Shown in pieces: positions 24,179 to 47,144 of a DNA stretch of 47,144 nt. The notes beneath the pieces are model-generated. The model saw only the letters and a list, made by a program, of their open reading frames with translations. It had not been told where the DNA came from and ran no database searches. Made by a program: the position numbers and the translations under genes. The DNA is from Desulfurococcaceae archaeon. Its GTDB lineage: Archaea > Thermoproteota > Thermoprotei_A > Sulfolobales > Desulfurococcaceae. The stretch spans positions 1-47,144 of the forward strand of contig JAWBBW010000010.1 in assembly GCA_038824035.1 (NCBI GenBank). Direction: 5' to 3'. Within the stretch, counting starts at the first letter, position 1. Every line of letters starts with the position of its first letter.

Positions 24179-25004
24179 CCACTACACCGTGATGTGAGAT
24201 ACGCGTTTTAAACAATTTAATATTGTTTATCTTCATTGACTCAATGATCTCATCAGCGTATTCCTCCTCAATCCACATGATCAATGCTGATTTTTTCAAG
24301 TAGTAGCCTATAACGCCTTTAATGGAACCTGGATCTTTTTTTAAACAATTATAGCAAAAGATCTTGCTTGTAAATCTCCTCGAATACTCGAAGAACAACA
24401 CAGGGTCCTCTTTCTCCATGATCTCTTTTAGAAATAGACGCCCCTCTTCATATACATTTCCCGGGATCCTCTCCAGCATATTAGCGGTTGACTCGATGTA
24501 GCCAAGTTCACCTACTATTAGAGTAGAGACCTCGGGGGCTAAGAGCCTGTACGCGATGCCAATCCCCGGGGCCCCCGGTTTCACCCTTATAGCCAAGCCC
24601 CCGGTGTATTCCGCTATAACGTCCCCTAAACCCGTTCTCCACTTGACTTCGATTTCATGGGCCTTTTGCAATGCATTGAAAAGAGGCCTCTTGGACACCA
24701 TGTGTGTTAGCAATGAGTGCGACATGATTAATGCAGCTGATAACCCAAATCCACTACCCAGTTTGAAAGGGGAGATCGCCCTAGTGGTGAGGGACATACC
24801 TGTCTCTATGCATATCTCCTTGGCTTGATCCTCTAGGACAGGCGTATCGTTTAAAAGTATCTTGCAATCGCCATCTTTCAACGTGGTTTCAAGGTATATG
24901 GCTAGGTTTACGCCAATACCTATACTGCCTGTTTCAAGGGGGTTAGAGGAGTAATAGGGGATCCATATCCCGGATACATGATGGGGGACGTAGATCTTGA
25001 TCAA
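24108..25004 (-). CDS. Pantoate kinase (GHMP family, archaeal PoK)
   Basis: [28 protein letters not shown]...TGLGDV, IR.KPGAPG. Adjacent to PPS. Confidence 0.9.
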
Positions 25005-25014
25005 AAGGACACCT

Positions 25015-26289: not shown

Positions 26290-26365
26290 CTCAAATCACC
26301 ACGGGATATATAGAGTAATTGATACAACAATATTATTTTTAACCCAGATAGTTTAATTAATCAAG

Positions 26366-27121
26366 GTGGTTTATGTGGCTAATCCTGCTGTCGTGGTAAA
26401 GGACCTGGTCAAGATATATGGCAAAGACACTATTGGTGTTGATGGAATATCTTTCACCGTGGAGGAGGGGGAGGTATATGCATTAGTGGGACCCAATGGC
26501 AGTGGTAAAACAACCACACTGAGAATAATATCCACGTTGATCAAGCCTACTCGAGGCAATGTATACGTCTATGGCATAGATGTGGTGAAAGAGCCGTTGC
26601 GGGCTCGATCAATGATGAACTACTTGCCAGAGGAGGCAGGTGCATATAGAGATCTCACGGGGCTGGATTTCATAAGGTTTATGCTAGCCCTCAGATTCAA
26701 GGGCAGGCAATTAGAGGAAGCTGTGGAAGAAGCTATCAAAATATCGGACCTGGGTAATTACTTGAAAAAACCCATTAGGACATATAGCAAGGGGATGAAG
26801 AGGATACTCGCTGTGAGCGTGGTGCTGGCCTCTAAGCCGAGGTTATTGATACTGGATGAACCAACCACGGGATTGGATGTTGAGAGGAGCATATATGTAA
26901 GGGATTTGATCAGAAAATACAACGCCAATTACAGGATAACGATATTGCTCAGTAGTCACAATATGCTTGAAGTGGAATATTTGAGCCATAGAGTTGGGAT
27001 GTTGTATCGGGGGAAACTAGTAGCCGAAGGCACGCCAAGCCAATTAAAGAGCTTCATGAACGCTGTTAACCTCGAAGAGGTGTTTATCAAGTTGAAAACA
27101 GCAAGGGGTGATATAAAATGA
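26366..27121 (+). CDS. ABC-2 exporter ATP-binding subunit (NatA-like) 1
   Basis: GPNGSGKTT, YSKGMKR, ILDEPTTGLD, SSHNM. Confidence 0.93.
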   Translation: MVYVANPAVVVKDLVKIYGKDTIGVDGISFTVEEGEVYALVGPNGSGKTTTLRIISTLIKPTRGNVYVYGIDVVKEPLRARSMMNYLPEEAGAYRDLTGLDFIRFMLALRFKGRQLEEAVEEAIKISDLGNYLKKPIRTYSKGMKRILAVSVVLASKPRLLILDEPTTGLDVERSIYVRDLIRKYNANYRITILLSSHNMLEVEYLSHRVGMLYRGKLVAEGTPSQLKSFMNAVNLEEVFIKLKTARGDIK

Positions 27122-28389
27122 CCCTATCACACTTACTCAAACGTGAGATCAAGGCATTTCTCAAAAACCCGTCTTTCATACTCGCAGTGGTGCTTGTACT
27201 GGGGATATACGGGACACTGGGCAATATAACGGGTAAAGCAACGGAGTCGGCTGTCAGGGAAATGTTAGAGGCCAGAATAGGCCTTGTAATGGAAGAGGAC
27301 ACCCAACTCGTCAGGCAGGTTGTTAGATTACTAAATATCACTCTCAATGGCAAGGTGTATTTATATGACTCGCTCGACAGGGCTATATCAGAGACTGGGA
27401 TCGGAGTGGTTTTGCCAAGGGGTTTCACCGAGAACGCTACTTCCACGGATAAACCTGTTTTGATAAAAGGCAGTGTCAGGGTAATGGCTTTTTCAATAAC
27501 GAGTGGACAAGCCAGGATCGGAGTTTTATCAGCTGTTTCAAATACGTTGGAGAGGATATTACCTATAGCTATAGGCGCCATTTACAACGTGAGTATCCAG
27601 CCACAGAAACCCGTGGTCCTGAATAGTACTATACTATTATATGAGAGAGAGATCGATTACAGTGTTTTCTCCTCGATCATGTTTATGATCTCGCTTACTC
27701 CAATGCTTGTGAGCATAGTCTTCGGCATTAATGCAACATATGCATCGCAATTAGTCGCCATAGAGAAAGTGGAGAAGGCGTTTGAGATGTTATTGGCTCA
27801 GCCCATTAAGAGGAGAGACATCGTGTTAGCTAAAATACTTGGCGCGTCAATTGCCTCGATAATATTCGGAACAATTTACTTAATCGGCATGTTCATTATT
27901 TACACTGGTGGACAGGGATCAGCGGTGCAAGAGGTATCCGGGATAACTACAACGCCGTTCACGTTAATGCTCAATATATTTGGACCCTGGATACTGATTA
28001 TAACGGGTTTGACACTCATGCTTGGATTAGTGTTCTCGGGTGCTATTGGAGTGATAATAGGGTCGGCTGTGAGTGATGAGAGAATCGCCGGCGGCCTCGC
28101 CACGCCAATAATGTTAATATTCATAGGTGTCGGGTTTTCAATAATGTTCATGGGACTTCAGCCAAGTATTTCAACGGCTATTTTAGCTGGCATGACAATT
28201 GCCCCATTGCCTTACATTTACGCCATCTCCACGCTATCTGGGGATGTGTTTTTAATGGTTTACTCAATAGGTATAGCTATCGGCATGTGTGCTTTGTTAA
28301 TATATCTGGCAACGAACATGTTCAATAGGGACATAGTTGTACTGGGTATAAGGATCTCCTGGGCCAGGAAGCAAAAAGAGCGTGTGTGA
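27118..28389 (+). CDS. ABC-2 exporter permease (NatB-like) 1
   Basis: N-terminal TM, extracellular loop, EKVEKAFEMLLAQP...IVLAK motif, further TM helices. ATGA overlap with the ATPase. Confidence 0.88.
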   Translation: MTLSHLLKREIKAFLKNPSFILAVVLVLGIYGTLGNITGKATESAVREMLEARIGLVMEEDTQLVRQVVRLLNITLNGKVYLYDSLDRAISETGIGVVLPRGFTENATSTDKPVLIKGSVRVMAFSITSGQARIGVLSAVSNTLERILPIAIGAIYNVSIQPQKPVVLNSTILLYEREIDYSVFSSIMFMISLTPMLVSIVFGINATYASQLVAIEKVEKAFEMLLAQPIKRRDIVLAKILGASIASIIFGTIYLIGMFIIYTGGQGSAVQEVSGITTTPFTLMLNIFGPWILIITGLTLMLGLVFSGAIGVIIGSAVSDERIAGGLATPIMLIFIGVGFSIMFMGLQPSISTAILAGMTIAPLPYIYAISTLSGDVFLMVYSIGIAIGMCALLIYLATNMFNRDIVVLGIRISWARKQKERV

Positions 28390-29199
28390 CTAGCTCTCTT
28401 TTTTACTGAAAAAGTAATGTCTCTCTTCTGGGAAAGAACCTGTCTTAACCTCTTCTACGTATTTCCTCACAGCCTCCTTAATCACTGACTTCAGATCAGC
28501 ATATGCCTTGGCAAAGGGCGGTAAATTCGCAGTTAAACCCAGCACGTCATGTAGAACTAGCACTTGTCCATCGCAATAGGGGCCACTACCTATACATATA
28601 GTAGGGATGGATACTTCTCTTGTAACTTCGGCTGCCACGTCAGCAGCCGTGTACTCTATGACAAGGGAGAACACGCCGGCCTTCTCTAATTCCCTTGCAT
28701 CATTGATTATTTTCTCGCGCTCCGCTTCTCTCAGCCCTCTTTTCTTATAACCACCTATCAATAGGGCTCTCTGAGGGTTTAACCCAATGTGGCCCATCAC
28801 AGGTATCCCGGCCCTCACCATTGCCCTGACAACATCTGACATCTCTGCCCCTCCCTCTATTTTGACCGCGTCTGCCCCTGCTTTCAACATTAAGCCAGCA
28901 TTTCTAACAGCATCTTCCGTGCTTATCTCATAGCTCAGGAACGGCATATCTCCAACCACCAACGCCCTTGGTTCAGCCCTCGCTACACTGGATACATGGA
29001 GTAACATCATGTCCATTGTCACTGGTAGTGTTGATTTAAAGCCATGTACAACCATGCCTACGCTATCGCCCACCAATATTATCTCAACACCTGCTTCGTC
29101 AACTAACTTTGCCGTGATATAGTCGTAGGCTGTTATCATGGCTATTTTATCCTTGCCCTTCATCTTGAGAATGTCTTTCACCGTGATCTTCTCTCCCAT
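28390..29199 (-). CDS. panB: 3-methyl-2-oxobutanoate hydroxymethyltransferase
   Basis: MITAYD, LVGDS.GM, DMPF, AVKIEGG, MGHIGL.PQ, IGSG..CDGQVLV.HD.LG. Confidence 0.97.
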   Translation of the reverse strand: MGEKITVKDILKMKGKDKIAMITAYDYITAKLVDEAGVEIILVGDSVGMVVHGFKSTLPVTMDMMLLHVSSVARAEPRALVVGDMPFLSYEISTEDAVRNAGLMLKAGADAVKIEGGAEMSDVVRAMVRAGIPVMGHIGLNPQRALLIGGYKKRGLREAEREKIINDARELEKAGVFSLVIEYTAADVAAEVTREVSIPTICIGSGPYCDGQVLVLHDVLGLTANLPPFAKAYADLKSVIKEAVRKYVEEVKTGSFPEERHYFFSKKES

Positions 29200-29269
29200 G
29201 AGATCGCGCCTCGCCTACCTGGTCATTCTTAGTGATGATACATCGGCTTTAATAACATATTTCAAAACC

Positions 29270-30202
29270 CTATCTCGCCTTCTCAGCCAATTTAACCAGC
29301 ATCGTTATAATGGCGTTGACGGAATTCTCCCTGCCTAGCTCCCTTGCAACAAAGCCATTTATATAATCGATCTCAGTTATCCTGCCAGCCATGAGGTCCT
29401 GTGCCATGCTCGAGTAGTTGTTTCCAGTACTCTTCACTGATCTAATCACATGATCTAATAGCCTATTGGGATCCAGCTCGTATCCATGTCTCCTAGCGAC
29501 TTCTACGACCTCGCCTATGATCAGCCTTGCGATCTCCAGGCCCTCTTTTTCCAGGATTATCTTGTTCTTAGACCTGGTCAACGCCGTTACCGGGTTGACC
29601 ACAGCATTCAATGCCAATTTTAACCACCGATAGAAATCTATGTCACTTGTCACTCGGAGCTCTAATCCACCTCTTCTCAGAATGTGATGTAATGAGAGGA
29701 GCTCTATGCAAGTCCTGTTCCTACACCCGGCGATCACAATGTCCCCGCCATGATATATCACCCTGTTTCTACTCGCCCTCTCTGCGCCGAAATAGACCAC
29801 TCCACCAGCCACTTTTAAATACGGTAAAGCGTTCTCCGCTAACTCTAAGCTACCGAACCCGTTTTGAAACATTATGACCACTGTATCCTGTATTGCGAGC
29901 CTTTTCATCAACTCAATGGTCTCTGGCACGCTGTACGCCTTGACGGTGTTAAGTATGTATAGGCACTTGTCCACAACTAGTTCTACTTGCCTAGGTATAA
30001 CCGGCACGAGTATTTCAACCCCCCTTACATTGTCGATCACTGTGATACCTTTATTCTCGTAGATGCTCTTGATACTATCAATTGACGAGTAGTAAACAGG
30101 GATCTCAGCGATACCACCCCTATATAGGAAATACGCCAAAGTGGAGCCAACCGCTCCGCCGCCTATTATACAAACATAATTGTAGTGGACCAAACTTTTC
30201 AC
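29270..30202 (-). CDS. panE: 2-dehydropantoate 2-reductase
   Basis: GGGAVG, VKAY, QNGFG, WLKL..N...NP.TAL, N.SSM.QD...GR.TEIDYING. Confidence 0.93.
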   Translation of the reverse strand: MKSLVHYNYVCIIGGGAVGSTLAYFLYRGGIAEIPVYYSSIDSIKSIYENKGITVIDNVRGVEILVPVIPRQVELVVDKCLYILNTVKAYSVPETIELMKRLAIQDTVVIMFQNGFGSLELAENALPYLKVAGGVVYFGAERASRNRVIYHGGDIVIAGCRNRTCIELLSLHHILRRGGLELRVTSDIDFYRWLKLALNAVVNPVTALTRSKNKIILEKEGLEIARLIIGEVVEVARRHGYELDPNRLLDHVIRSVKSTGNNYSSMAQDLMAGRITEIDYINGFVARELGRENSVNAIITMLVKLAEKAR

Positions 30203-35713: not shown

Positions 35714-35802
35714 CTAGGACACCGTTTTAGATAATGCCCTTGGTATATATTTTATTTATCTCCCATTCAATAAACTATGTTGACATAAGGTGGTATTGCC
35801 GC

Positions 35803-36594
35803 ATGCATATTGGGAAACACTTGAGAATGTACCGCATACTAAGCCCTGTCACAAACAGGACTGTGATAGTCCCATTGGATCATGGCGGTTACGGGATGAT
35901 CGAGGGTTTAGAGGATATAAGTAACGTTGTTAAGGGCGTTGTGAAAGGAGGGGCTAATGCATTGATCCTACAGCCAGGCATCGTGAAACAGGTGTACAAG
36001 GAGATCGCCGGTAAAACTGGGCTGATAATAAGGGTAAGCGCTATCTCCGTTTTCAACAAGAATAGAGGGTTGATCGAGGCTGGCACGTACAGTGTCGAGA
36101 ACTCGTTGATGCTCGGGGCTGATGCAGTTATAACATCGCTGTATATCGGGGGTGAATATGAAATCGAAAGCATAGAGAACACTAGTAGTGTGTGTGGCGT
36201 GGCTGATAGATATGGTGTGCCGTGTTTGGTGGAGGCCTTTCCATCCTTGGACAGGTTTAAGAGTGTTCAAGACCCAGAGGGAATAATACAGGTGATTAGA
36301 ATGGCAGTGGAGCTTGGTGCCGACATGGTCAAGGCCTATCTACCGGCTGATTACGATTTCATGAAAGAAGCTGTTAAGAAAGCCAGGGTACCAGTGGTGT
36401 TAGCTGGCGGTGAGGCCTCCTCGCCGATAGATGTATTGAGGCTCGCCAAGCTCGCGATCGATGCTGGTTTAGCCGGTGTCTGCTTCGGGAGAAAGGTTTT
36501 CAAATACAAGGACCCGTCTTTAATGGTCAAGGCATTATCCCTTATAATCCATGAAGGCCTGGGCGTGGAAGAGGCATCTAAGATCCTTGTTTAA
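35803..36594 (+). CDS. Class I (DhnA/LsrF-type) aldolase
   Basis: PLDHG, LGADAV, ELGADMVK (Schiff-base Lys), PVVLAGG, G..FGR.VF. Start at ATG 35803 after AGGTGG. Confidence 0.9.
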   Translation: MHIGKHLRMYRILSPVTNRTVIVPLDHGGYGMIEGLEDISNVVKGVVKGGANALILQPGIVKQVYKEIAGKTGLIIRVSAISVFNKNRGLIEAGTYSVENSLMLGADAVITSLYIGGEYEIESIENTSSVCGVADRYGVPCLVEAFPSLDRFKSVQDPEGIIQVIRMAVELGADMVKAYLPADYDFMKEAVKKARVPVVLAGGEASSPIDVLRLAKLAIDAGLAGVCFGRKVFKYKDPSLMVKALSLIIHEGLGVEEASKILV

Positions 36595-37297
36595 CAACAT
36601 CTATGTACACTGGGTGTAATTGCATTTTAAAATCCCTTTTACCCTCCATGGCTATCATTACCCATAAGTATTTCAACCCCTTCACAGGCGTTGAGACATT
36701 TGGATGATAACCCCTTGTCACCAACACAGCGTCGTAATCCCTCACTATATATGCCTCTTCATGGTCATCGTTAATTATTAATTGAACACCAAGTCCAGGC
36801 TCCACATCATAGTACACGAATAACTCGTATTTGTCGTCGTGTCTATGAGGTGGAAACGAACCCCAGCAACCAGGGCAACAATGTGTATAACCCGCGAGAA
36901 ACCTAGAAGATGCGTCTTCCTCGCCTATGAGCAAGTATCTTCTTCTACGAGATCTCTCATCACCTATATCGAAGAACATTGCATCTCCAAATCTCTTGAG
37001 ATATGGTTTATATTTAGTATTAGACATGGCCTCTAAGACATAGACAATTGAACCCTCTTGAAGCGAGAGATCTAGGCGGCTTATTCCCATGGGTATGTAT
37101 ATCATGTCCTTTTCAAGGGCCATTAATTCATTGAATTTCACAGCCCCTTTAAGGGGCACAATTATTTTCTCGCTCTCAGTGTTTGTGTATATCGATACTG
37201 AGGTTATTTTGATCGATTGGATAAAATGAAGAGCTATGTCTCGAATACGAAATATTTCAATCGGTTTATCCGTAATTCCTGGCTTCCTGAACAACAT
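36578..37297 (-). CDS. 5-deoxy-glucuronate isomerase-like cupin (IolB/KduI family)
   Basis: WGSFPPHRHD, ELFVYY, G.GVQ, D.VLV.RGYHP. Start at ATG 37297 after GGAGGTG. Confidence 0.87.
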   Translation of the reverse strand: MLFRKPGITDKPIEIFRIRDIALHFIQSIKITSVSIYTNTESEKIIVPLKGAVKFNELMALEKDMIYIPMGISRLDLSLQEGSIVYVLEAMSNTKYKPYLKRFGDAMFFDIGDERSRRRRYLLIGEEDASSRFLAGYTHCCPGCWGSFPPHRHDDKYELFVYYDVEPGLGVQLIINDDHEEAYIVRDYDAVLVTRGYHPNVSTPVKGLKYLWVMIAMEGKRDFKMQLHPVYIDVVKQGS

Positions 37298-37448
37298 GTT
37301 TAAAGCACCTCCTTGACTCTGCCAGGTTCGTGTAGGCCATGAGTGGGTATTAAACAATTTAATATCAATTAGCTCTAAGACAATTCATTAAAAACACAGC
37401 CCTAATGGTTTACAGGAACATGGTGTAAAACAGTGATATGAAACACCA

Positions 37449-38537
37449 CTAACCCTCATTGAGAACACACCACTCCTCTACAAGTCTCCTATAGATCTCA
37501 ATACCTTTTTTCAATTCATCCATGGATATCCTCTCTTCAGCACTATGTGCGAGCTCTGATCTGCCGGGTCCATAAGCAATCATGTCCTCCGTTATAACTG
37601 GGAACAATATATTCATATCGCTTGTGCCGTGTTTGTATAAGACCCTCGGTTTTTGCCCAGCTCTGAGCAAGGCCCTGATTAAGGCCCTTGCAACCTCGTT
37701 GTTAATGCTCGACTTAACAGGTTTTGTAAACTCTATTAAATCCCATTCACATCCATCCATGGATGATATAGCATTTCGAATATCATGTATAACCGATTCC
37801 GGGTCATTATCTATGCCTATTCTCACCTGGATCAATGCTGACCCTTCTCTAGGTATAACAGGCATATCCTCGCCACACTCTAATTTCAATAGAACAGCTG
37901 TATTGTGATTAACACCAACATTGTCATAGCCCCTGTTCTTGAGAACATTCCATATCCCTATTAATTTCTCACAAGCCGATCCACTCGAGCCCATCGAGGA
38001 ATGTCCCCCTTGCCCAGTACAGTAAACCCTCACTTTCAAACTCCCTCTGTAACCGATGACTACTCCATTGGTGTTAGTTGGCTCAGCTATCACAACCCCC
38101 TTTGCCCTGAATCCTTTTCTAACCAAGTGTTTTGCACCTATGCTTTCGCCCTCCTCATCAACCAATGCAATTGCATATATTTTGTATTTCCCAGTATTCA
38201 CGAAGTCCTTGGCGAGGGCGAATCCTATGAAACCAGCGACCAGTGGGCCCTTGGCGTCCACTGCTCCTCTGCCCTGGATCTCGTCCCCACTTACGCTTAT
38301 AGGTATCTTCCACGGAATAGTGTCTATGTGGCCTATCAAAGCCAGCGTTCTATCCCCTTTTCCATAACTGGCTATTAAGTTACCGACTTCGTCCACTTCG
38401 ACATGTTCATAGCCCAGTTTCTCGGCATATTTCCCCAGGATCTCTACTGCCTGACGCTCTCCTCGAGGAGGGCTATATGTTTTCAATAGATCTAGCAACA
38501 TCTCTACGGCTAAGTTCTTGATCAACGCATTTCTCAA
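37449..38537 (-). CDS. lysK: [LysW]-lysine hydrolase (M20 family)
   Basis: GHIDT, GRGAVDAKGPL, DEEG, EP, GYRG, GTSDMN, YGPG.S.LAH..EE. Last gene of lysWXJK. Confidence 0.92.
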   Translation of the reverse strand: MRNALIKNLAVEMLLDLLKTYSPPRGERQAVEILGKYAEKLGYEHVEVDEVGNLIASYGKGDRTLALIGHIDTIPWKIPISVSGDEIQGRGAVDAKGPLVAGFIGFALAKDFVNTGKYKIYAIALVDEEGESIGAKHLVRKGFRAKGVVIAEPTNTNGVVIGYRGSLKVRVYCTGQGGHSSMGSSGSACEKLIGIWNVLKNRGYDNVGVNHNTAVLLKLECGEDMPVIPREGSALIQVRIGIDNDPESVIHDIRNAISSMDGCEWDLIEFTKPVKSSINNEVARALIRALLRAGQKPRVLYKHGTSDMNILFPVITEDMIAYGPGRSELAHSAEERISMDELKKGIEIYRRLVEEWCVLNEG

Positions 38538-39663
38538 GGAGATTCACCGCGTAATATATGTCATCGGTTGTGATCATATATGGAGGTAGGAATCTCACAA
38601 CACTCACACCAGCTTTAAGCGCTAGTAAACCGTTTCTCTGCAAACACTTGATCACACCTGTTGGCGGCACCCTGAGGTCTACTCCAATCATCAATCCCTT
38701 TCCACGTATATCCTTTACCAGCCTGTTCCCACCTATCCTCTTAGAGAGCACATACATGAATAGTTCCCCGGATTCCCTTGCTTTCGAAGGGACATTGTCT
38801 TGTAACAAAACATCAACAGATGCCTTCACAGCTACGCATGCCAATGGATTACCACCATATGTTGTCCCATGTGAACCCTCCTCGAGTTTGTTAGCTATGT
38901 CTGACCGAGTGAAAACAGCGCTGACTGGGAAACCCCCTCCTATTGCTTTACCAGCTACTAATATATCGGGTTTGACCCCGTATTGCTCAAATAACCACAC
39001 AGTACCAGTTCTCCCGAACCCTGTCTGTACTTCGTCGATCACGACATATGCACCGGTCTCCGAGGCTCTCTCAACGACGTGTTTCACAAACTCGTTAAGA
39101 GCTACGTTGACACCGCCTTCTCCTTGTATTAATTCAAGTACCACGCACGACGTATTATTGTCAATTACCTTGTCAACATCGTGGGGGTCGTTAAACCTGG
39201 CTTGACATGTACCTGGTAATAGGGGTTCAAAACCCTCTCGGTATTTCCTATTTGAAGAAGTTATTGATAAAGCGCCCAATGTCCTGCCGTGGAAAGACCC
39301 AGTGAAATAGACTATTTTTTCACGTTTACTCGCCTTTCTACACATCTTGATACTGAATTCTATTGCCTCACTGCCGCTGTTGAGTAAGTATACGTACTCG
39401 TAATCACTTGGCACGATCTTTGACAATGCCTCGAGCATTTCATCCCTTATGCTCGTCCTAAAAGACGTCGACAACGTCATTATTCTCTCCATTTGCTCGA
39501 TCAAGGATTTCACTATATGGGGGTTTCTATGCCCTAGGAAGGCGACACCATGCCCTGTGTGCATATCGAGATATTTATTCCCGTGTTTATCCCAGACATA
39601 TTGTGCCTCTCCTCTAATTATTTCGAGTTCTCTATCCTCGTACATCATTAGGTATTTCAACAT
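38473..39663 (-). CDS. lysJ: [LysW]-aminoadipate semialdehyde transaminase (class III)
   Basis: YLD...G.GV..LGH, NSGSEA, FHGRT.G, ELIQGEGG, DEVQTGFGRTG, GKAIGGG.P, HGTTYGGNPL, RFLPP. Confidence 0.93.
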   Translation of the reverse strand: MLKYLMMYEDRELEIIRGEAQYVWDKHGNKYLDMHTGHGVAFLGHRNPHIVKSLIEQMERIMTLSTSFRTSIRDEMLEALSKIVPSDYEYVYLLNSGSEAIEFSIKMCRKASKREKIVYFTGSFHGRTLGALSITSSNRKYREGFEPLLPGTCQARFNDPHDVDKVIDNNTSCVVLELIQGEGGVNVALNEFVKHVVERASETGAYVVIDEVQTGFGRTGTVWLFEQYGVKPDILVAGKAIGGGFPVSAVFTRSDIANKLEEGSHGTTYGGNPLACVAVKASVDVLLQDNVPSKARESGELFMYVLSKRIGGNRLVKDIRGKGLMIGVDLRVPPTGVIKCLQRNGLLALKAGVSVVRFLPPYMITTDDIYYAVNLLEKCVDQELSRRDVARSIENI

Positions 39664-39665: not shown

Positions 39666-40517
39666 TTATTTCCTCGCCACTTGCTTTACGTACTCAATCA
39701 CCTTTACATGGACCTTATAGCCAGTAACTCTGACAGTGTTCTTGAATTCTGGGACAGCATTGACCTCGTTAACTATATACCCTCTCTCAGGGTCCTCGAA
39801 TACATCTATTCCCATGAACTCCCCTCCGATGGCTTTCGCCGTCTTAATGGCTATCTCCTCTAATTCACTGTCCACTTTAGCTGGGAGAGCCACTCCTCCT
39901 CTAGCTGTATTAGTTATCCAATGTTCACTTGCCCTATATATGGCGACCGGTACTTCCTCTCCTATTACGAACACTCTTATATCTCTGCCAGGTTTCTTGA
40001 CGAATTCCTGGATCATGAAGATCCTCATGATCGGGTTTGGGATAAAGCTTCTGTGTTCTAATAGCGATCTCAATTCCTCGTGATCTCTTGCCAACGATAC
40101 CAATCGACCCCAACTACCATCTATGGGCTTTATTACGACTGGATAACCGCCAAGCGCTTCAACGGCCTTTGTAGATGGCTCGTGGTCAAACGCTATGATC
40201 GTTCTTGGGACTTTAATACCCCTTGAAACCAGTATTTGAGCTGTCCATAGCTTGTTCATCGCTATGGCTGTTGAGAGCGAATTATTGATCACCCTTATAT
40301 TCGCTGATTCAAGAGCTATTGTGGAGTTTAATGCAATGGCATGGCTTATTGCGCGCTGTAAGGCGATATCTACGTGGTCTTTGTCACTACTCCCTATGGG
40401 CATGTACACTGAGTGGAGATGTATAAGCTTTAACTCTACACCCAGTTCCCTAGCAGCCTCCATTAACGCCTTCTCTTCCCATCTAATAACTTCGTATACT
40501 ATGCCCAATTTCACCAA
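39666..40517 (-). CDS. lysX: Alpha-aminoadipate--LysW ligase (ATP-grasp)
   Basis: RWEEK, KP..GSWGR, QEFV.KPGRDIR, LysX-type signatures IYR...HWITNTARGG and EFKNT. Confidence 0.94.
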   Translation of the reverse strand: MVKLGIVYEVIRWEEKALMEAARELGVELKLIHLHSVYMPIGSSDKDHVDIALQRAISHAIALNSTIALESANIRVINNSLSTAIAMNKLWTAQILVSRGIKVPRTIIAFDHEPSTKAVEALGGYPVVIKPIDGSWGRLVSLARDHEELRSLLEHRSFIPNPIMRIFMIQEFVKKPGRDIRVFVIGEEVPVAIYRASEHWITNTARGGVALPAKVDSELEEIAIKTAKAIGGEFMGIDVFEDPERGYIVNEVNAVPEFKNTVRVTGYKVHVKVIEYVKQVARK

Positions 40518-40538: not shown

Positions 40539-40709
40539 TTACTCGCCCCAATCTTCTCCTACGCCTTCAAATGGCCTTAGCTTGATCTCCCCGTTTTCAA
40601 TCACGACCTCAAGTGTTATCCCGCAATCATGTTCCACTAATTCTCCTTCCAATACATCACTTGGCAGGTTTACAACCCCGCCACATATAGGGCACTTGGC
40701 CTCAGGCAT
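40539..40709 (-). CDS. lysW: Amino-group carrier protein LysW (56 aa, absent from the ORF track)
   Basis: MPEAKCPICGGVVNLPSDVLEGELVEHDCGITLEVVIENGEIKLRPFEGVGEDWGE. Zn knuckles, EDWGE C-terminus, GGTGA RBS. Confidence 0.97.
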   Translation of the reverse strand: MPEAKCPICGGVVNLPSDVLEGELVEHDCGITLEVVIENGEIKLRPFEGVGEDWGE

Positions 40710-40860: not shown

Positions 40861-40914
40861 TGTGATTAATAAACTCCTACCGTGTATATTGCTATACCGT
40901 TCAAGGGGGTTGGC

Positions 40915-41973
40915 TTGTCTAAAGTCAATGTGTGTATTATAGGTGGATCCGGCTATACAGGGGGAGAATTACTGAGAATACTAGCTGGACACCCCTATAC
41001 CGATATAGTAATCGTGACCTCTAGGGAGCATGCTGGCAAACCCCTGCACCACGTACACCCAAATCTACGCGGGTTTTACAAGGACTTGAAATTCAGCCAG
41101 ATCAATATGGATCAGATCCTCAGCAAATGCGATGCTGTGTTCCTATCGCTACCACATACAGTGTCTCTGCAATATGTGCCAAAACTATATGAGGCGGGAT
41201 TGAAAGTCGTGGACCTAAGTGCTGATTTCAGGTTAAAAGACCCTGTTCTCTACAAGATATGGTATGGATTCGAACATCCATATCCAGATCTCTTGGGGAA
41301 AGCTGTCTACGGCATGCCGGAGATACATAGAGAGGAGTTGAGAAACGCGAGGCTAATAGCTGTCCCGGGGTGCAACGCCACTGCATCTATTTTATCCTTG
41401 TTACCGCTCATTAAGGGCGATCTTGTGGAACATGACAAGATCGTCATAGATGTGAAGGCTGGGAGTAGTGAAGCCGGTTCTAAGCCCTCGCCTGGAGATC
41501 ATCATCCCGAGAGAGAGGGTTGTATTAGGCCATATGATCCACATGGACATAGGCATGTCGCGGAGATAGAACAGGAGTTAAAGACCATTTCTGGAAAGGA
41601 GATCAAGGTATCCATGATACCTCATGCTGTGAGCTCTGTGAGAGGGGTATTAGCATCCACGCATGCATGGCTAGTTAAGGATATTGACGAGATGGGTATT
41701 TTGAGAGCATATGTTAATACTTATAGAGGAGAACCATTCATCAGGATCGTCTATAAAACAATACCCGGTTACCCCGATCCCAAGTATGTGATTGGGAGTA
41801 ATTACGCCGATATCGGGTTCGCGATCGAGAGCAGGGTTCGCAGGATCTCGTCTTTCTGTGCAATAGATAACCTGGTTAAGGGCGCGGCTGGACAAGCGGT
41901 TCAGGCGTTCAATATATCGATGGGGTTCGAGGAAACAACTGGCTTGGTAATAATCCCCCCTAGACCTGTCTAG
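40915..41973 (+). CDS. lysY: [LysW]-aminoadipate-phosphate reductase (ArgC family)
   Basis: GGSGYTGGEL, LPH, DLSADFRL, YGMPE, PGCNAT, GSSEAG, HHPER, HRH.AE, DNLVKGAAGQAVQ. Start trimmed to TTG 40915. Confidence 0.94.
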   Translation: MSKVNVCIIGGSGYTGGELLRILAGHPYTDIVIVTSREHAGKPLHHVHPNLRGFYKDLKFSQINMDQILSKCDAVFLSLPHTVSLQYVPKLYEAGLKVVDLSADFRLKDPVLYKIWYGFEHPYPDLLGKAVYGMPEIHREELRNARLIAVPGCNATASILSLLPLIKGDLVEHDKIVIDVKAGSSEAGSKPSPGDHHPEREGCIRPYDPHGHRHVAEIEQELKTISGKEIKVSMIPHAVSSVRGVLASTHAWLVKDIDEMGILRAYVNTYRGEPFIRIVYKTIPGYPDPKYVIGSNYADIGFAIESRVRRISSFCAIDNLVKGAAGQAVQAFNISMGFEETTGLVIIPPRPV

Positions 41974-42783
41974 GTGATGGTGTTGTCAATAGTTGTCAAA
42001 GCCGGTGGTAGGGCTATCGCAATGAACCTGGACAACATAGTGAGTGATATAGTCAACATCTCCAGTACCTGGAAAACGGTTTTCGTACATGGAGGTGGAG
42101 ACATGGTCACGGAGATGTGTATGAGACTTGGCATAGAGCCCAGGTTTGTGACATCGCCTGAGGGGATTAGAAGCAGGTACACGAATAGAGATGAACTAGA
42201 TGTATATCTAATGGTCATGGCCGGTAAATTGAACAAGATGATAGTTTCGAAAATCATAGCCCTGGGTAAAAAGGCCATTGGTTTGAGCGGGGCTGATGGC
42301 CCGTTGTTGATCGCAGAAAGGAAGAAGAAAATTGTCGTGGTCGATGAAAGAGGTAGGAAAAGGGTGATCGATGGTGGTTATACTGGGAGAGTTGTAGAGG
42401 TCAAGTTGGATTTATTGGAGAGATTGCTAGGCGAATACATAGTGGTGGTTTCGCCAATAGCTATTGACCGGGAAGGCTTATTGCTGAACATAGATGGCGA
42501 TCAAGCGGCATACGCCATAGCTTCTTCCATCAAGGCCGATACCTTGGTGTTGTTATCTGATGTGGAGGGCGTGTTGCTCGGTGATAAGTTGATCAAGGAG
42601 CTCCGAGCACAGGACATAGACCTCATCATAGACAAGATAGGGCCTGGTATGAATAGGAAATTATTACTGGCTAAGAAAGCCGTTGAAGAAGGGGTCAACC
42701 AGGTCGTGATATCCTCTGGCCTCGTCGCAAATCCAGTGTCTAATGCATTAAAGGGCATGGGCACATTGATAACAAGGGGTTAA
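41974..42783 (+). CDS. lysZ: [LysW]-aminoadipate kinase (ArgB family)
   Basis: VVKAGG, VHGGG, SRYT, GLSGADG, GGYTG, N.DGD, SDV.G, GM..K. Confidence 0.93.
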   Translation: MMVLSIVVKAGGRAIAMNLDNIVSDIVNISSTWKTVFVHGGGDMVTEMCMRLGIEPRFVTSPEGIRSRYTNRDELDVYLMVMAGKLNKMIVSKIIALGKKAIGLSGADGPLLIAERKKKIVVVDERGRKRVIDGGYTGRVVEVKLDLLERLLGEYIVVVSPIAIDREGLLLNIDGDQAAYAIASSIKADTLVLLSDVEGVLLGDKLIKELRAQDIDLIIDKIGPGMNRKLLLAKKAVEEGVNQVVISSGLVANPVSNALKGMGTLITRG

Positions 42784-42784
42784 T

Positions 42785-43204
42785 ATGCGCATAGACGAGA
42801 TAGATCTGAGGCTTTTACAGCTATTGAAAGAGAACGCTAGAATGCCTTACTCAAGGTTAGCCAGGGAACTAGGTATCAGCGAGGGTGCTGTGAGGAAGAG
42901 AATTGCGAAACTAATTAAAATCGGTGTGATCAAGAAAATGACGATAGAATACGAACTAGACAACGAGATCAAGGCTATAATATTGGTTAAGACCCAGCCC
43001 CCAATACCAGTGCCCGAGGTGTCGAAAAACATAAGGAAAATACCCGGGGTAGACATAGTTTATGAGGTGACAGGCGAATACGACATAGTGGTGATCACAA
43101 GATCGCCGAACATAGATAATGTGAATAGGTTAATAGATGAAATAAGGTCTATCTCGGGAGTTGCCAGTACGTATACAATGATGGTGTTGAGAACCTGGGT
43201 CTAG
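42785..43204 (+). CDS. lysM: Lrp/AsnC-family regulator of lysine genes
   Basis: IDEID..LL.LL.ENAR..Y..LA..LG.SEGAVRKRI, YEVTGEYD RAM domain. lysYZM gene order as in Sulfolobales. Confidence 0.9.
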   Translation: MRIDEIDLRLLQLLKENARMPYSRLARELGISEGAVRKRIAKLIKIGVIKKMTIEYELDNEIKAIILVKTQPPIPVPEVSKNIRKIPGVDIVYEVTGEYDIVVITRSPNIDNVNRLIDEIRSISGVASTYTMMVLRTWV

Positions 43205-43310
43205 ACGAATTTCATATGATCTAGGTTTGTTCTTCATATATATAATCACTTGTTTCACCAATTCTATATACATTTTTCAAAAACAATCACGCTAAATCAA
43301 TCTCATTATC

Positions 43311-43373
43311 TTTACGTTCTCCGAACCATTATTGAATTCAATAGTACGTGTTCTTTGATTACATGTATATAAA
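43311..43373 (+). promoter_or_regulatory. Promoter of the synthase operon with LysM-like sites and a 14-bp palindrome
   Basis: TTTACGTTCTCCGAACC (43311) and an AGTACG half-site (43343) 32 bp apart, TATTGAATTCAATA (43330-43343), TATATAAA (43366-43373). Confidence 0.5.
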
Positions 43374-43428
43374 CCTGGAACATGACTGGAACAAATTTAA
43401 ATGTATATAACGAAATGAGGGCTCACTC

Positions 43429-44727
43429 ATGTATCAGGAATGCCCAGATTTCAATAACAACTTGGAGGGGGAGGAATATTATCGAGGTATATATCCATTC
43501 AAAGAAGTGCCCAGGTTTTGTTGCTTCGATAAAAAGGATTTGATGAATGATTTAAACAAGATATACTTAACAGATACAACTCTCAGAGATGGTCAACAAG
43601 GATGGAGAGTTTTCACAATTAATGAATGCGAAAGAATATACGAACTACTGGCTGAGTTCGGCAAGGCCGTCAAGAGCACAGAGGTATTTCTGTACACCGA
43701 GAAAGACCAGTTAATTGCCAAGAGACTTGTAGAATATGGTTATGAATATCCAAAAGTCATAGGGTGGATCAGAGCTACTAGGTCGGATCTCAAGCTCGTA
43801 ATGGATGCCCGTCTCGATGAAACAGTTGTGCTCGCATCAATATCGGATTACCACATAAAGCATAAGTTCAATTTAACTAGAGGGGAAGCGATAAGGAAAT
43901 ACCTAGATGTGATCGAAGAGGCGTTGAGGAATGGCATAGTACCCAGGGTTTCACTAGAGGATATAACGAGAGCTGATGTAGAGAATGTCGTGTTGCCTTT
44001 TATTAAGAGGTTATTAAAGCTTGGCGAGAGATATGGGTTACCAGTTAAAATAAAACTACCTGATACTCTTGGACTTGGATTACCGTTTTACGAGGTCTCA
44101 TTACCTAGAAGTATCCCTAGGATCATCATAGCTATAAGGTCCCTTGGAGTGCCATCTGAGAACATAGAGTTTCACGGCCACAACGACTTCGGCCTAGTCG
44201 TGGCTAACCAGTTGGCGGCGTGGATTTATGGGGCCGGAGGCGCGAACTGTACTTTGATGGGGATAGGTGAGAGAGCTGGTAATTGCCCTCTCGAAGTGAT
44301 GGCGATTCATTACGCTGGCATAAAGGGTTCAAGCGAGATCAATTTAAGAGCAGTGGCCAAGGTACCAGAGTTGTTGGAAAACATGGGTTACAGGATCCCA
44401 GATCACTACCCCTTTATCGGTAAAAACGCATTCACGACAAGGGCTGGTATACATGTTGATGGGCTTGTTAAAAACCCCGAAGTATACTTACCATTTGACC
44501 CTATACATGTGCTTGGAATACCTTTCTCAATCGCCATAACGCCTTATTCCGGTAGATCTGCCATAGTGTTGTGGATTAGGAATCACCTTGGTCGTAAGGA
44601 CGTGAACAAGGATGATCCGAGAGTAATCGCTATTTACAAGGAGATATTGGAGTATTTCGAGAAAACTGGAAGAACAACTCCATTGGATAACCACGAGGTG
44701 TTGTCATTTATTAAAAAGTACTTTTAA
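43429..44727 (+). CDS. DRE-TIM acyl-CoA:2-oxoacid condensing enzyme, Re-citrate-synthase-like, probable homocitrate synthase
   Basis: DTTLRDGQQG, EVFLY..KD, WIRA, SDYHI..K, EDITRAD, DTLG.G, LPRS, HGHNDFG, GIGERAGN, AF...AGIH.DG. Confidence 0.85.
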   Translation: MYQECPDFNNNLEGEEYYRGIYPFKEVPRFCCFDKKDLMNDLNKIYLTDTTLRDGQQGWRVFTINECERIYELLAEFGKAVKSTEVFLYTEKDQLIAKRLVEYGYEYPKVIGWIRATRSDLKLVMDARLDETVVLASISDYHIKHKFNLTRGEAIRKYLDVIEEALRNGIVPRVSLEDITRADVENVVLPFIKRLLKLGERYGLPVKIKLPDTLGLGLPFYEVSLPRSIPRIIIAIRSLGVPSENIEFHGHNDFGLVVANQLAAWIYGAGGANCTLMGIGERAGNCPLEVMAIHYAGIKGSSEINLRAVAKVPELLENMGYRIPDHYPFIGKNAFTTRAGIHVDGLVKNPEVYLPFDPIHVLGIPFSIAITPYSGRSAIVLWIRNHLGRKDVNKDDPRVIAIYKEILEYFEKTGRTTPLDNHEVLSFIKKYF

Positions 44728-44757
44728 CCCCGTGAAAAAGGCGAGGTGATCCATTAA

Positions 44758-46020
44758 ATGGGCTTTGTGGACACGTTGTTCTCGAATGTCCTTGGCAGAG
44801 AAGTGTCGCCAGGGGAAATAGTGATCGTCGATATCGATGCCATATATGCACATGATGGGACAGCGCCATTGGTAATAGATGTCTTGGAGAAGGAACTTAA
44901 ACCCCCCGTTTTACTAGCTAGTACTAGGACTTTCTTTTTCATGGATCATCTTGCCCCGGCACCCCATGTGTCAGCGGCTTCTGTGCATAGGAAAATGAGG
45001 GCTTTCAGCGAGAAACATGGGATCAATTTATACGATATCGGTAACGGTATTTGTCACCAAGTAATGGTTGACGAGGGAATTGCCAGGCCTGGGATGATAA
45101 TCATGGGGGCTGATAGCCACACACCAACTCTCGGGGCACTGGGGCTTTATGCGATCGGGGTTGGGAGCACGGATGTGGCAGTGGCCATGGCTTATGGAAA
45201 ACAGTGGATCAGGGTTCCACCCACGGTGAAAGTGGTATTAACTGGGAGACCAGGGATAGGTATCACATCCAAGGACATAGCACTCAGTGTCATAGGTAAA
45301 GTGGGCACGGATGGCATGATAGGTAGAGTCGTGGAATTCCACGGTGATACGCTGAGGTATCTATCAATCGATGCAAGGTTAACCTTGACAAATATGTGTA
45401 CAGAGATGACAGCCGAATCAGCTGTCATACCCATTGACGAGGTAACTGAGAGATGGCTTACTCAAAAGGGTTTAACACCGTATAGATACCTCAAATACGA
45501 TAGCTCCAAAGCGTTCTTTATCGATGAAATCGTATTTGAGGTATCAAAACTAGAGCCAGTAGTCGCGGCTCCACCAGATGTCGACAATGTCAAGTCGATC
45601 AACGAAGTGGAGGGCATCGAGGTTGACCAGGTGTATATAGGGTCTTGTACTAATGGTAGGTTAGAGGACTTGGAAATAGCGTCTAGGATATTGAAAGGCC
45701 GCAAAGTCCACGTGAACACTAGGTGTATAGTATCGCCGGCTTCGAGGAAAGTGTATATGGATGCCCTTGAAAAAGGGTACATAGATGTGTTGATCAGGAC
45801 TGGATGTGTGATAGCCCCTCCGACATGCGGGCCCTGTGTAGGAGCCCACATGGGTATTTTGGCAGAGGGCGATGTAGCGGTGTCAACTACTAACAGGAAT
45901 TTCCCAGGCAGAATGGGGCATAAGGATAGCAAGGTCTACTTGGCCTCGCCCGCGGTGGCGGCCGCTACCGCTGTGGAAGGTAAAATAACTGATCCCAGGA
46001 AATACCTAGGAGGTGTCTAA
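44758..46020 (+). CDS. Homoaconitase / 3-isopropylmalate dehydratase large subunit
   Basis: HDGT, DH, GICHQ, GADSHT.T.GA, IGSCTNGR, CGPC.G, STTNRNF.GRMG, YLASP. Confidence 0.93.
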   Translation: MGFVDTLFSNVLGREVSPGEIVIVDIDAIYAHDGTAPLVIDVLEKELKPPVLLASTRTFFFMDHLAPAPHVSAASVHRKMRAFSEKHGINLYDIGNGICHQVMVDEGIARPGMIIMGADSHTPTLGALGLYAIGVGSTDVAVAMAYGKQWIRVPPTVKVVLTGRPGIGITSKDIALSVIGKVGTDGMIGRVVEFHGDTLRYLSIDARLTLTNMCTEMTAESAVIPIDEVTERWLTQKGLTPYRYLKYDSSKAFFIDEIVFEVSKLEPVVAAPPDVDNVKSINEVEGIEVDQVYIGSCTNGRLEDLEIASRILKGRKVHVNTRCIVSPASRKVYMDALEKGYIDVLIRTGCVIAPPTCGPCVGAHMGILAEGDVAVSTTNRNFPGRMGHKDSKVYLASPAVAAATAVEGKITDPRKYLGGV

Positions 46021-46527
46021 ATGAAGATCAGAGGTAGATGTTGGAAACTAGGGGATAATATCAGTACAGACCACATAATATCGGGCAAATATAAGTTCAG
46101 CGCTATTGATAGCCTGGACTCGATGATCAGATATGTATTCGAGGAAGTGATACCCGGGTTCAATGAGAAGGTTGAAAAGGGCGATATAATAATAGCTGGT
46201 AGGAATTTCGGCAAGGGGTCGAGCAGGGAACATGCGCCGAGACTACTAAAGGCAGTTGGGATCAGCGCTGTAGTTGCCAAGAGCTTCTCCCACATATTCT
46301 TTAGAAATGCGATAAACATAGGCCTCCCCGTTGTGATTGCAAGAGAGATACCTGATATAACGCAGAACTGGGATATTATAGAAATAGACCTAGAGAAAGG
46401 CGTTATCAGGAACATGACAAGGGGTTTCGAGGAGAAAATAACCCCGTATCCGAGAGAAATAGCATCCATATTAGAAGCAGGTGGGATTGTGGAGTTCATT
46501 AAGAAACAAGGTGGTTTAAAATGGTGA
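46021..46527 (+). CDS. Homoaconitase / 3-isopropylmalate dehydratase small subunit
   Basis: GDNISTDHII, GRNFG.GSSREHA, SF..IFFRNAINIG. Confidence 0.93.
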   Translation: MKIRGRCWKLGDNISTDHIISGKYKFSAIDSLDSMIRYVFEEVIPGFNEKVEKGDIIIAGRNFGKGSSREHAPRLLKAVGISAVVAKSFSHIFFRNAINIGLPVVIAREIPDITQNWDIIEIDLEKGVIRNMTRGFEEKITPYPREIASILEAGGIVEFIKKQGGLKW

Positions 46528-47144
46528 GGAGGTATAGGATAGGCGTGATCAAAGGAGATGGTATTGGGCCAGAGGTCGTGGATGCTTCACTGAGGGTATT
46601 GGGTGAACTGGGCTTAGACCTGGAGTTCATCGAGATAAGCGCTGGTTATGGTTATTACAAGAGGACTGGTAAACCAATTGAGGACGGGTTCGTGGACAAG
46701 GTAATGGAAATGGATGCTGTGTTGAAAGGGCCTCTTCACACACCTCCACACGACCCTAGCTTTAGGAGCGTGAACGTGTTGATTAGGAGAACGCTCGATC
46801 TCTACGCTAACATAAGGCCTTTTAAGAGCTATAAGGGGATCTCCCAGCGCGAATTCAATTTCGTGATCATCAGGGAGAACACTGAGGGCGAGTACATAGG
46901 TATTGAAGGGGTTTTCAGTGACATGGCGATCTCGCTCAGAGTTGTAACGGAGAGAGGTTCCAGGAGAATCTGTGATTTCGCGTTCAGGTATGCGAAACTC
47001 CATGGATTTAATAAAGTAACAGTTGTCCATAAGGCCAATATCCTGAAGATCACAGACGGGCTATTCAGAGACGTGTTTTTCCGAGTGGCCTCTAGCTACC
47101 CGGATATAATCGCGGACGAATTAATAGTGGATACAGCGGCATAT
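46521..47144 (+). CDS. Beta-decarboxylating dehydrogenase (isocitrate/homoisocitrate/isopropylmalate DH family), 3'-truncated by window edge
   Basis: Own translation from ATG 46521: GDGIGPEV, KGPLHTP, RSVNV.IR..LDLYANIRP, RENTEGEY, HKANILK.TDGLF, VD. Absent from the ORF track. Confidence 0.93.
   Translation, partial: MVRRYRIGVIKGDGIGPEVVDASLRVLGELGLDLEFIEISAGYGYYKRTGKPIEDGFVDKVMEMDAVLKGPLHTPPHDPSFRSVNVLIRRTLDLYANIRPFKSYKGISQREFNFVIIRENTEGEYIGIEGVFSDMAISLRVVTERGSRRICDFAFRYAKLHGFNKVTVVHKANILKITDGLFRDVFFRVASSYPDIIADELIVDTAAY

Follow-up and report, generated by a model that had tools for sequence, protein, structure and literature searches.

Four tightly packed genes at the right end of contig JAWBBW010000010.1 of the Desulfurococcaceae archaeon assembly GCA_038824035.1, encoding a synthase, the two subunits of a hydro-lyase and a beta-decarboxylating dehydrogenase, very probably form the front end of the LysW-type alpha-aminoadipate (AAA) pathway of lysine biosynthesis and, judging from their sequences, would convert 2-oxoglutarate to 2-oxoadipate. 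The whole contig, of 47,144 nt, is called the window below, and genes were assigned from open reading frames (ORFs) and from family-model scores against their cut-offs. The assignment to lysine is drawn from a LysW system that adjoins the module, from the AAA-type signature of its LysX, and from the lack of any other candidate for homocitrate synthase (HCS), homoaconitase or homoisocitrate dehydrogenase (HICDH) in the genome. What was computed is the gene content, the family and clade membership, the signatures and the absences across the genome, and from these we infer all catalytic assignments. An earlier note on this DNA had proposed that the four genes run two rounds of elongation, from oxaloacetate to 2-oxoglutarate and then to 2-oxoadipate; the second round is well supported by inference, while the first is possible.

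In the proposed scheme, the synthase would condense acetyl-CoA with 2-oxoglutarate to homocitrate, the LeuC/LeuD-type Fe-S hydro-lyase would turn homocitrate into homoisocitrate, and the dehydrogenase would yield 2-oxoadipate by oxidative decarboxylation. Some transaminase would then make 2-aminoadipate, which LysX would attach to LysW, and LysZ, LysY, LysJ and LysK would process the LysW-bound product.

The LysW cluster and the specificity of LysX

The LysW system next to the module is complete, with LysW (which has an acidic C-terminus), LysX, LysZ, LysY, LysJ, LysK and LysM (Table 1). Three five-residue signatures of the LysX family are given in PMC12998189, namely F-I-T-NS for 2-aminoadipate, I-Y-V-GF for glutamate (ArgX) and Y-I-T-NA for the bifunctional enzyme of T. 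kodakarensis. When aligned to Thermus LysX, T. kodakarensis LysX and ArgX, the window LysX reads F-I-T-NT, which is identical to the first of these signatures at four of five places, with S changed to T at the fifth, and has no ArgX-type residue. Nine rows were aligned in this way: F-I-T-NT stands in the window, L091, L099, L101 and L018, Y-I-T-NT in L039 and L075 (Nitrososphaera-type), M-I-T-NI in L115 (the LysX of genome G153), and L-I-V-GF in a LysX-family gene near the second synthase copy in L100. No second LysX or ArgX gene was found in the source genome, where the match on contig C7 is RimK-like (31% identity) and that on C4 is PurT-like by eye; together with the signature, this indicates that the cluster should load 2-aminoadipate. 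The earlier reading of the ligase as aminoadipate-type thus agrees both with the signature and with the TIGR02144 score. In the source genome, the only genes able to make the precursor of 2-aminoadipate are the four of the module.

The ligase of L100 deserves separate mention. It is a RimK-family member encoded at L100:1120-2010 (genome G014) and has an ArgX-like signature; like a gene for an Lrp-type regulator, it is found at a distance of about 5 kb from a lone synthase copy. An ArgX assignment of this ligase was considered and not adopted; its best family is MptN-like, below cut-off, and it is also under the LysX cut-off.

A different reading would restrict the module to the first round, as a branch of Re-citrate synthase, aconitase and isocitrate dehydrogenase (IDH) for glutamate, with the LysW system serving ornithine and arginine only and no lysine being made. 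The top LysZ model, a bifunctional aminoadipate/glutamate kinase, would fit this, and so would the occurrence of LysY in sampled genomes that have no strong HMGL synthase, for example in genus g29, since LysY alone is then no proof of lysine synthesis. Argininosuccinate synthase (ArgG) points in the same direction: it is found in 3/46 sampled genomes of the window's family (G000, G113 and G090), two of which carry the lys island, while G090 has neither LysY nor the synthase. This distribution is a hint that arginine synthesis, too, may be supplied by the island; LysX, however, has no glutamate-type signature, matching the AAA type at 4/5 places and ArgX at none, and LysM scores over its own cut-off. 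With the pocket of the synthase and the genome G153 also speaking against it, as described below, we regard this reading as quite unlikely.

Gene content of the source genome

The source genome (G000) has 1.33 Mb in 29 contigs, of which the window is the whole of C10, and is 99.67% complete with 0.36% contamination. No match to the Si-citrate synthase family (PF00285) was found in it, by a model that gave a signal in 13 of 14 known genomes used as positive control. The families PF00682 (HMGL-like), PF00180 (Iso_dh) and PF00330 (aconitase family) have a single match each, which are the synthase, the dehydrogenase and the large hydro-lyase subunit of the module, respectively. By these counts, a citrate synthase, aconitase or Icd apart from the module is missing from the genome, as is a separate LeuA/LeuCD/LeuB set. 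The first three of these absences are what the earlier note had named as favouring its proposal, and they were borne out, the module genes aside.

Several other genes bear on the supply of carbon and nitrogen. The genome encodes a 431-aa glutamate dehydrogenase, ArgG (G000:C1:137998-138477), proteins like ornithine transcarbamoylase (OTC) and aspartate transcarbamoylase, and an archaeal-type phosphoenolpyruvate carboxylase (PEPC); a GTP-type phosphoenolpyruvate carboxykinase was not found in it.

In the two-round proposal, one enzyme set would carry oxaloacetate to 2-oxoglutarate via Re-citrate and isocitrate and then 2-oxoglutarate to 2-oxoadipate, a compatible extension of the lysine role by which glutamate (and arginine) as well as lysine would draw their carbon skeletons from a single set. 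We hold this tentatively, at a little under an even chance. In its favour, a genome 99.67% complete has no other citrate synthase, aconitase or IDH; PEPC can supply oxaloacetate, and ArgG with the OTC-like gene implies a demand for glutamate. However, glutamate dehydrogenase is present, so that imported glutamate can yield 2-oxoglutarate, and the distribution of PEPC does not follow the module. The use of PEPC as a marker of the first round was dropped on that ground, the enzyme being found in 9/46 family genomes and not in G113, G086, G065 or G183.

Phylogeny and pocket residues of the synthase

The synthase matches every NCBIfam model far below its cut-off (best 179.6 against 517). The best models are those of isopropylmalate synthase (IPMS), and the IPMS and CimA models are all far under their cut-offs. 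Its best solved relative is the Sulfolobus HCS 6KTQ, at 125.5 bits only. Close homologues (50-76% identity) are found in Ignisphaera, Thermofilaceae, Desulfurococcaceae, Thermogladius, Stetteria and Pyrodictium records, where they bear the name 2-isopropylmalate synthase or generic names. A scan with one genome per species gave 527 relatives among 599 candidate stretches, and the best 80 were fetched as loci (numbered with L); these best 80 of 527 include Ignicoccus, Methanomethylicota and Nitrososphaeria, and also Bacillota, Phycisphaerae and Zixibacteria, whose homologues are 41-43% identical to the window synthase.

A tree of 104 rows was built from the window, 97 family members of the fetched loci and 6 classical IPMS/HCS-type outgroup genes, none being dropped, by a quick IQ-TREE search with SH-aLRT support only and with a long-branch warning. 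The family forms two sister clades far from the classical IPMS and HCS. All bacteria fall in clade A (48 rows, support 99), together with Ignicoccus, Methanomethylicota and many Nitrososphaeria, and 45/48 of its rows have no adjoining gene for a hydro-lyase subunit or a dehydrogenase. The window falls in clade B (49 rows, support 94), which it shares with Ignisphaera-titled records, Thermogladius, Pyrodictiaceae, two records of Nitrososphaera type and one of Korarchaeum. A single long row, L109, is unplaced.

The two clades are told apart by a few residues (window numbering). The window has L52, W113, R173, S175 and K209. Clade A has F52, R173, H175 and R209 without exception (48/48 rows), and W113 is shared by every row of both clades (48/48 and 49/49). 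Among the 49 rows of clade B, position 175 is A in 22, S in 21 and T in 6, and position 173 is R in 25, K in 23 and E in 1. In the alignment to 6KTQ, W113, R173 and S175 of the window stand at H, R and T of HCS, places which we take, for the Thermus and S. pombe enzymes, to bind the distal carboxylate of 2-oxoglutarate. At 173 and 175, though not at 113, the predicted pocket of clade B (R/K-x-S/A/T) thus looks HCS-like rather than like that of Re-citrate synthases (R-x-H), and the replacement of the histidine by a small residue at 175 may give space for the extra methylene of 2-oxoglutarate.

Two characterised Re-citrate synthases, from C. kluyveri and S. aciditrophicus, were compared by eye and outside the tree from Table S1 of PMC12016533, and both have F52, W113, R173, H175 and R209. 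They also share with the window synthase an N-terminal extension, the RDGQQ motif and the Trp, and Ignicoccus is listed among the users of Re-citrate synthase in the introduction of the same paper. The characterised enzymes thus share the clade-A signature, so that clade A should be the Re-citrate synthase family proper and the window synthase a member of its sister. Accordingly, the earlier description of the synthase as Re-citrate-synthase-like stands at the family level, given the 41-43% identity to bacterial members, RDGQQ and the Trp, and needs to be narrowed below it: by its sequence the enzyme is assigned to clade B, with S175 instead of H175, and not to the clade of C. kluyveri. The pocket of clade B departs from the Re-citrate synthases exactly where HCS differs, which argues against a module of the first round only in spite of the membership in the family. 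For the two-round proposal, H175 in the characterised enzymes and in 48/48 clade-A rows against S175 in the window is likewise an adverse point.

As a side observation, two loci with clade-A synthase genes, L030 and L037, continue with LeuCD-type and Iso_dh genes, with a different small-subunit loop (PGRF/PGRY-FHLR). Their layout suggests that the operon order of synthase, hydro-lyase and dehydrogenase may predate the split of A and B.

The public names of the homologues and the IPMS models as best NCBIfam matches would suit another 2-oxoacid elongation, towards leucine or isoleucine via isopropylmalate or citramalate. However, the IPMS and CimA models lie far below their cut-offs, the dehydrogenase has an S-x-N loop of IDH type, and the window has W113 and R173, against L and E at these places in four rows with an L-E-S motif, which we assume to be IPMS/CimA-like. 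A decaying remnant might be suspected from the incomplete dehydrogenase gene; against it, none of the complete ORFs is disrupted, the gene is cut just where the contig ends, and the four-gene order is conserved in 23 of the best 80 loci, with 3 more cut by contig ends and 6 with pairs of synthase and dehydrogenase. Both of these readings are highly improbable.

The hydro-lyase and the dehydrogenase

Both hydro-lyase subunits pass the cut-offs of archaeal LeuC/LeuD-type subfamilies (IPMI_arch/hacA_fam/LEUD_arch). The large subunit scores 539.2 on TIGR02086 (cut-off 410.15) and 510.4 on TIGR01343 (cut-off 385.7) and is below the equivalog cut-offs of HacA_Meth (427.6 against 550) and LEU2; the small subunit scores 170.5 on TIGR02087 (cut-off 108.95) and stays below HacB2_Meth (176.6 against 230). 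The GKYKFS loop of the small subunit, said earlier to be atypical, does differ from the corresponding loops of the M. jannaschii isopropylmalate isomerase 3VBA (ARYLV--YTK), the P. horikoshii protein 1V7L (GRYNLTKD) and the M. jannaschii homoaconitase (HACN) 2PKP (GPYLRTTD). GKYKF is kept in the 11 rows nearest to the window, and three module rows of f15/f16 have GRYKF.

The four ORFs and the motifs quoted for the dehydrogenase lie where the earlier note had placed them, with KGPLHTP at nt 46725-46745 and FRSVNV at nt 46761-46778. The PF00180 match covers positions 2-223 of 348. The closest solved relative is the NAD-dependent IDH 6LKY (156.8 bits), then Thermus HICDH, with 5HN3 at 114.8 bits. 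The S-x-N of the window aligns with YRSVNVTLRQ of 6LKY and not with Thermus HICDH (1X0L/3ASJ), which has FFGAIRYLRR there, and at this loop the protein is IDH-like. With only 208 residues present, the protein is under all equivalog cut-offs (AksF2 197.8 against 540), and a full-length orthologue from G153 scores about equally on IDH, HICDH and isopropylmalate dehydrogenase chains. The IDH-like loop agrees with two rounds, and also with the first round only; by itself the S-x-N motif does not exclude homoisocitrate as the substrate. An S-x-T loop occurs in two Pyrodictiaceae-like rows (G153 and L076). A rule that ties a change of the loop from S-x-N to S-x-T to the presence of a separate Icd was considered and dropped, because S-V-N is retained in G054, which has an Icd-type gene.

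Three full-length orthologues, used as queries, failed to locate the rest of the dehydrogenase gene (its 3' part) among the 29 contigs, and the remainder of about 140 residues therefore falls in an assembly gap.

Distribution of the module in related genomes

A class sample of 201 genomes (G000 and 200 others, among which metagenome-assembled genomes are incomplete) was searched for the synthase (E ≤ 1e-70), LysY (E ≤ 1e-40), PF00285, PF00682 and PF00180. The synthase family was found in 49/201 genomes and LysY accompanies it in 43/49, the six others being G065, G086, G183, G003, G011 and G023 (59% complete). Si-citrate synthase occurs together with the synthase in 7/49 (G006, G141, G145, G153, G155, G179 and G189), and no Si-citrate synthase was found in any sampled genome of the families f1, f5, f6, f7, f8, f14, f15 and f16. 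The sample has 42 genomes of the window's family, G000 among them; five of these (G000, G113, G065, G086 and G183) have the synthase, exactly these five have an Iso_dh gene, and LysY is confined to G000 and G113, both of the window's genus. In that genus 2/12 genomes have the synthase, and the same two have LysY and Iso_dh; the other ten have neither the module nor LysY.

The exact tracking of the LysW cluster by the module within the genus agrees with a lysine role and speaks against two rounds, as does the fact that 37/42 family genomes have neither the module nor Si-citrate synthase, by which de novo 2-oxoglutarate via citrate is dispensable in this lineage. The complete 2.0-Mb genome G153 is instructive too. 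It has a cluster of Si-citrate synthase, a 432-aa Icd and a 912-aa AcnA at 1897027-1901329, a clade-B module of the four genes at 838960-843046, LysY and one PF00682 match only. With a full citrate branch beside it, the module is not needed for citrate there and most simply serves lysine, which again argues against the first round only.

The opposite case is met in G086 and G065 (complete genomes) and G183, where the clade-B module is the only set like citrate synthase, aconitase and IDH, LysY is absent, and no LysX orthologue was found besides RimK-like matches of 30-32%. The synthase row of G086 is the same as that of L019, whose record bears the title Thermogladius sp. A module without the LysW pathway should have a role other than LysW-dependent lysine synthesis, most simply the citrate branch, and these genomes therefore favour two rounds, or the first round only, for modules of this type. 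Moreover, lys-linked and lys-less modules show no consistent difference at 11 synthase positions, in the S-x-N of the dehydrogenase or in the small-subunit loop (GKYKF), which is also in favour of two rounds.

Other genomes carry two copies. In G054 the module lies about 15 kb from the lys cluster, and there are a second clade-B copy and a 425-aa Icd-type gene. The second copy (L090:7731-11285), 60% identical to that of the window, stands on the same strand between glnA (TIGR00653, 558.9 bits) and nadE, a setting that ties it to nitrogen and glutamate metabolism and so favours two rounds. However, the nearest relatives of the module (g33), which also carry a second synthase and the 425-aa Icd-type gene, suggest that the lys-linked module is specialised. 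G014 and G020 have an 11-gene operon in one direction (synthase, large subunit, small subunit, dehydrogenase, lysY, lysZ, lysM, lysW, lysX, lysJ, lysK; L018:7979-17829 and L101:7582-17400) and a lone second synthase elsewhere. G014 has two synthases and one Iso_dh gene, and G020 (99% complete) has two clade-B synthases and, as Iso_dh genes, a LeuB-like one and that of the module only; two synthases with one non-LeuB dehydrogenase are compatible with shared use of the downstream enzymes in two rounds. The layout of synthase, LysY, no Si-citrate synthase and one Iso_dh gene is seen in seven sampled genomes besides G000 (G113, G134, G165, G186, G190, G014 and G007), which again is in favour of two rounds. 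Clade-B synthases occur in lys loci also in the order lysM-lysW-lysX-synthase (L039 and L075, Nitrososphaera) or beside lysYZM (L067 and L099); like the 11-gene operon, these arrangements favour a lysine role.

As to the history of the island, its flanks differ between G000 and G113 (L099 against window 35734-37449), the module is inverted in G113, and what flanks the island in G113 has its counterparts in G000 on contigs C16 and C9 and not on C10. Bearing on horizontal transfer, the synthase and LysY of the window are 65-71% identical to g33 and 62% and 69% identical to G113; this is tempered by a flanking housekeeping ORF of G113 which is also only 62% identical to G000.

Organization of the window

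The right end of the window consists of a divergent pair of lys operons, lysW-lysX-lysJ-lysK on the minus strand (40709-37449) and lysY-lysZ-lysM on the plus strand (40882-43204), then a spacer and the four-gene module (Table 1). The spacer is likely a promoter region of the module, a putative assignment from its position. LysJ, although below both cut-offs, has the Sulfolobales LysJ model as its top match.

Table 1. Features of the lys operons and the four-gene module, with coordinates in the window
Feature	Position (nt)	Strand	Evidence and remarks
LysK hydrolase	37449-38537	-	TIGR01902 256.1 > 163.1; NF001747 286.4, cut-off 288
LysJ aminotransferase	38473-39663	-	NF045491 519.5 < 700; argD subfamily model 384.2 < 410.05
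LysX, ATP-grasp ligase	39666-40517	-	TIGR02144 336.5 > cut-off 275.6; F183-I193-T204-N260-T261
LysW carrier protein	40542-40709	-	56 aa, C-terminus EDWGE; translation, placed by tblastn
LysY, ArgC-type reductase	40882-41973	+	TIGR01850 426.6 > cut-off 233.6
LysZ, [LysW]-aminoadipate/[LysW]-glutamate kinase	41974-42783	+	NF010662 366.8 > cut-off 194
LysM, Lrp/AsnC-type regulator	42785-43204	+	NF040947 204.5 > cut-off 180
AT-rich spacer, lysM to synthase	43205-43428	no strand	224 bp; gap computed from coordinates
Synthase	43429-44727	+	432 aa; PF00682 and PF22617 matches
LeuC/HacA-type hydro-lyase large subunit	44758-46020	+	420 aa
LeuD/HacB-type small subunit	46021-46527	+	168 aa; GKYKFS loop at nt 46084-46101
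Beta-decarboxylating dehydrogenase (Iso_dh family)	46521-47144	+	first 208 residues only, open at contig end

Beside lysK, at 35734-37357, lie genes for a DhnA-type aldolase (ADH-synthase family, 222.5 bits, below the cut-off of 241) and an IolB/KduI-type cupin (weak matches). Farther away, two neighbouring IF-2B-family paralogues (PF01008; 330 and 316 aa) are found at 2818-4757 on the minus strand. A loose coenzyme A/pantothenate group spans 20972-30202, with a Dfp-like protein, phosphopantothenate synthetase, ketopantoate hydroxymethyltransferase and ketopantoate reductase, among which a phosphoglycerate mutase and an ABC transporter are interspersed.

Discussion

Several points weigh against the lysine role and keep it short of certainty. 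No transaminase for 2-oxoadipate was identified in this analysis. The synthase scores far below the classical HCS models (TIGR02146 155.6 against 413.55, TIGR02660 165.9 against 462.9) and has Trp at the place of the His of 6KTQ. The dehydrogenase has the IDH-like S-x-N motif and V, not R, at the place we take to be Arg85 of Thermus HICDH, and its gene is incomplete in the assembly. ArgG and the OTC-like gene mean that the LysW system may carry glutamate too, and modules without lys genes exist in G086, G065 and G183. These points stand against the complete LysW system, the LysX signature and the lack of any other candidate genes, and we still consider the conversion of 2-oxoglutarate to 2-oxoadipate very probable.

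More speculatively, clade B may represent chain-length-tolerant Re-type (homo)citrate synthases not described before, which together with the co-operonic enzymes would run both rounds in genomes with a single set; we put this somewhat below even odds. If it is true, lineages with two synthases and shared downstream enzymes would show subfunctionalisation under way, such as g33, with copies by glnA and by the lys genes, and f15, with the copy in the 11-gene lys operon and a lone copy. A bifunctional set would moreover be a living example of the patchwork model, in which the citrate branch and lysine synthesis share one enzyme set for their homologous steps, and natural duplicates at different stages of specialisation would be available for comparison.

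If clade B is the HCS of many Thermoproteota and some Nitrososphaeria, the public name 2-isopropylmalate synthase is a misnomer, and metabolic reconstructions of these archaea are in error on both lysine prototrophy and the glutamate branch. H175 against S, A or T at 175 would be a simple candidate switch of specificity between citrate and homocitrate synthesis.

Comparison with known systems

The proposal of an undescribed system was too strong, since the parts belong to known superfamilies and shared or bifunctional enzymes of citrate, lysine and leucine metabolism are already known. A literature search of limited coverage found no description of clade B or of a double role in citrate and homocitrate synthesis in these archaea, also where it was directed at HCS activity with oxaloacetate. 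Within that coverage, what appears undescribed is the sister clade of the Re-citrate synthases in archaeal lysine operons with an HCS-like pocket, and the range of sets met in nature, from single through shared to duplicated.

Like the Re-citrate synthases of C. kluyveri (CKL_0973) and S. aciditrophicus (SYN_02536), the window synthase is an HMGL-like TIM barrel of about 430-460 aa with an N-terminal extension, RDGQQ, Trp at 113 and the metal-binding HxH. It differs from them in L52, S175 and K209 against F52, H175 and R209 (compared by eye), and from clade A as a whole in its place within an operon of LeuCD- and IDH-like genes beside lysine genes, since such neighbours are lacking in 45/48 clade-A rows.

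With the classical HCS (Thermus 2ZTJ/3A9I, S. pombe 3IVS, Sulfolobus 6KTQ) it would share the reaction and the position in the pathway. As in 6KTQ, an Arg and a small hydroxyl residue occupy the R and T places, and linkage to LysW genes is seen as for the Sulfolobus enzyme. However, its scores to the solved chains are 71-126 bits only, Trp replaces His at 113, and no C-terminal regulatory domain is present, the protein ending after the post-HMGL domain.

In small archaeal genomes, one enzyme may serve homologous steps of two or three pathways, as in the Thermococcales, Thermus and Sulfolobus systems. In favour of two rounds, oxaloacetate is a substrate of the Thermus HCS, isocitrate is the preferred substrate of the Thermus HICDH, and the dehydrogenases of Pyrococcus and Thermococcus are bifunctional for isocitrate and homoisocitrate, an NCBIfam model (NF040855) being named isocitrate-homoisocitrate dehydrogenase. 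The window enzymes belong to the same dehydrogenase and isomerase families as these shared enzymes (NF040855, TK0280, 5HN3, 1V7L). The sharing proposed here is different in that it would join the citrate branch to lysine and include the synthase.

In the coenzyme B pathway of methanogens, one set (AksA/AksD/AksE/AksF) elongates 2-oxo-dicarboxylates repeatedly, from 2-oxoglutarate to 2-oxosuberate. It offers a mechanistic precedent for the iterative use of one set, with 2-oxoglutarate as the starting point. Unlike the Aks and Hac proteins of methanogens, the window proteins stay below the equivalog cut-offs, the AksF2 score being that of a truncated protein, and the small-subunit loop has KYKF and not the YLRT of the methanogen HACN 2PKP.

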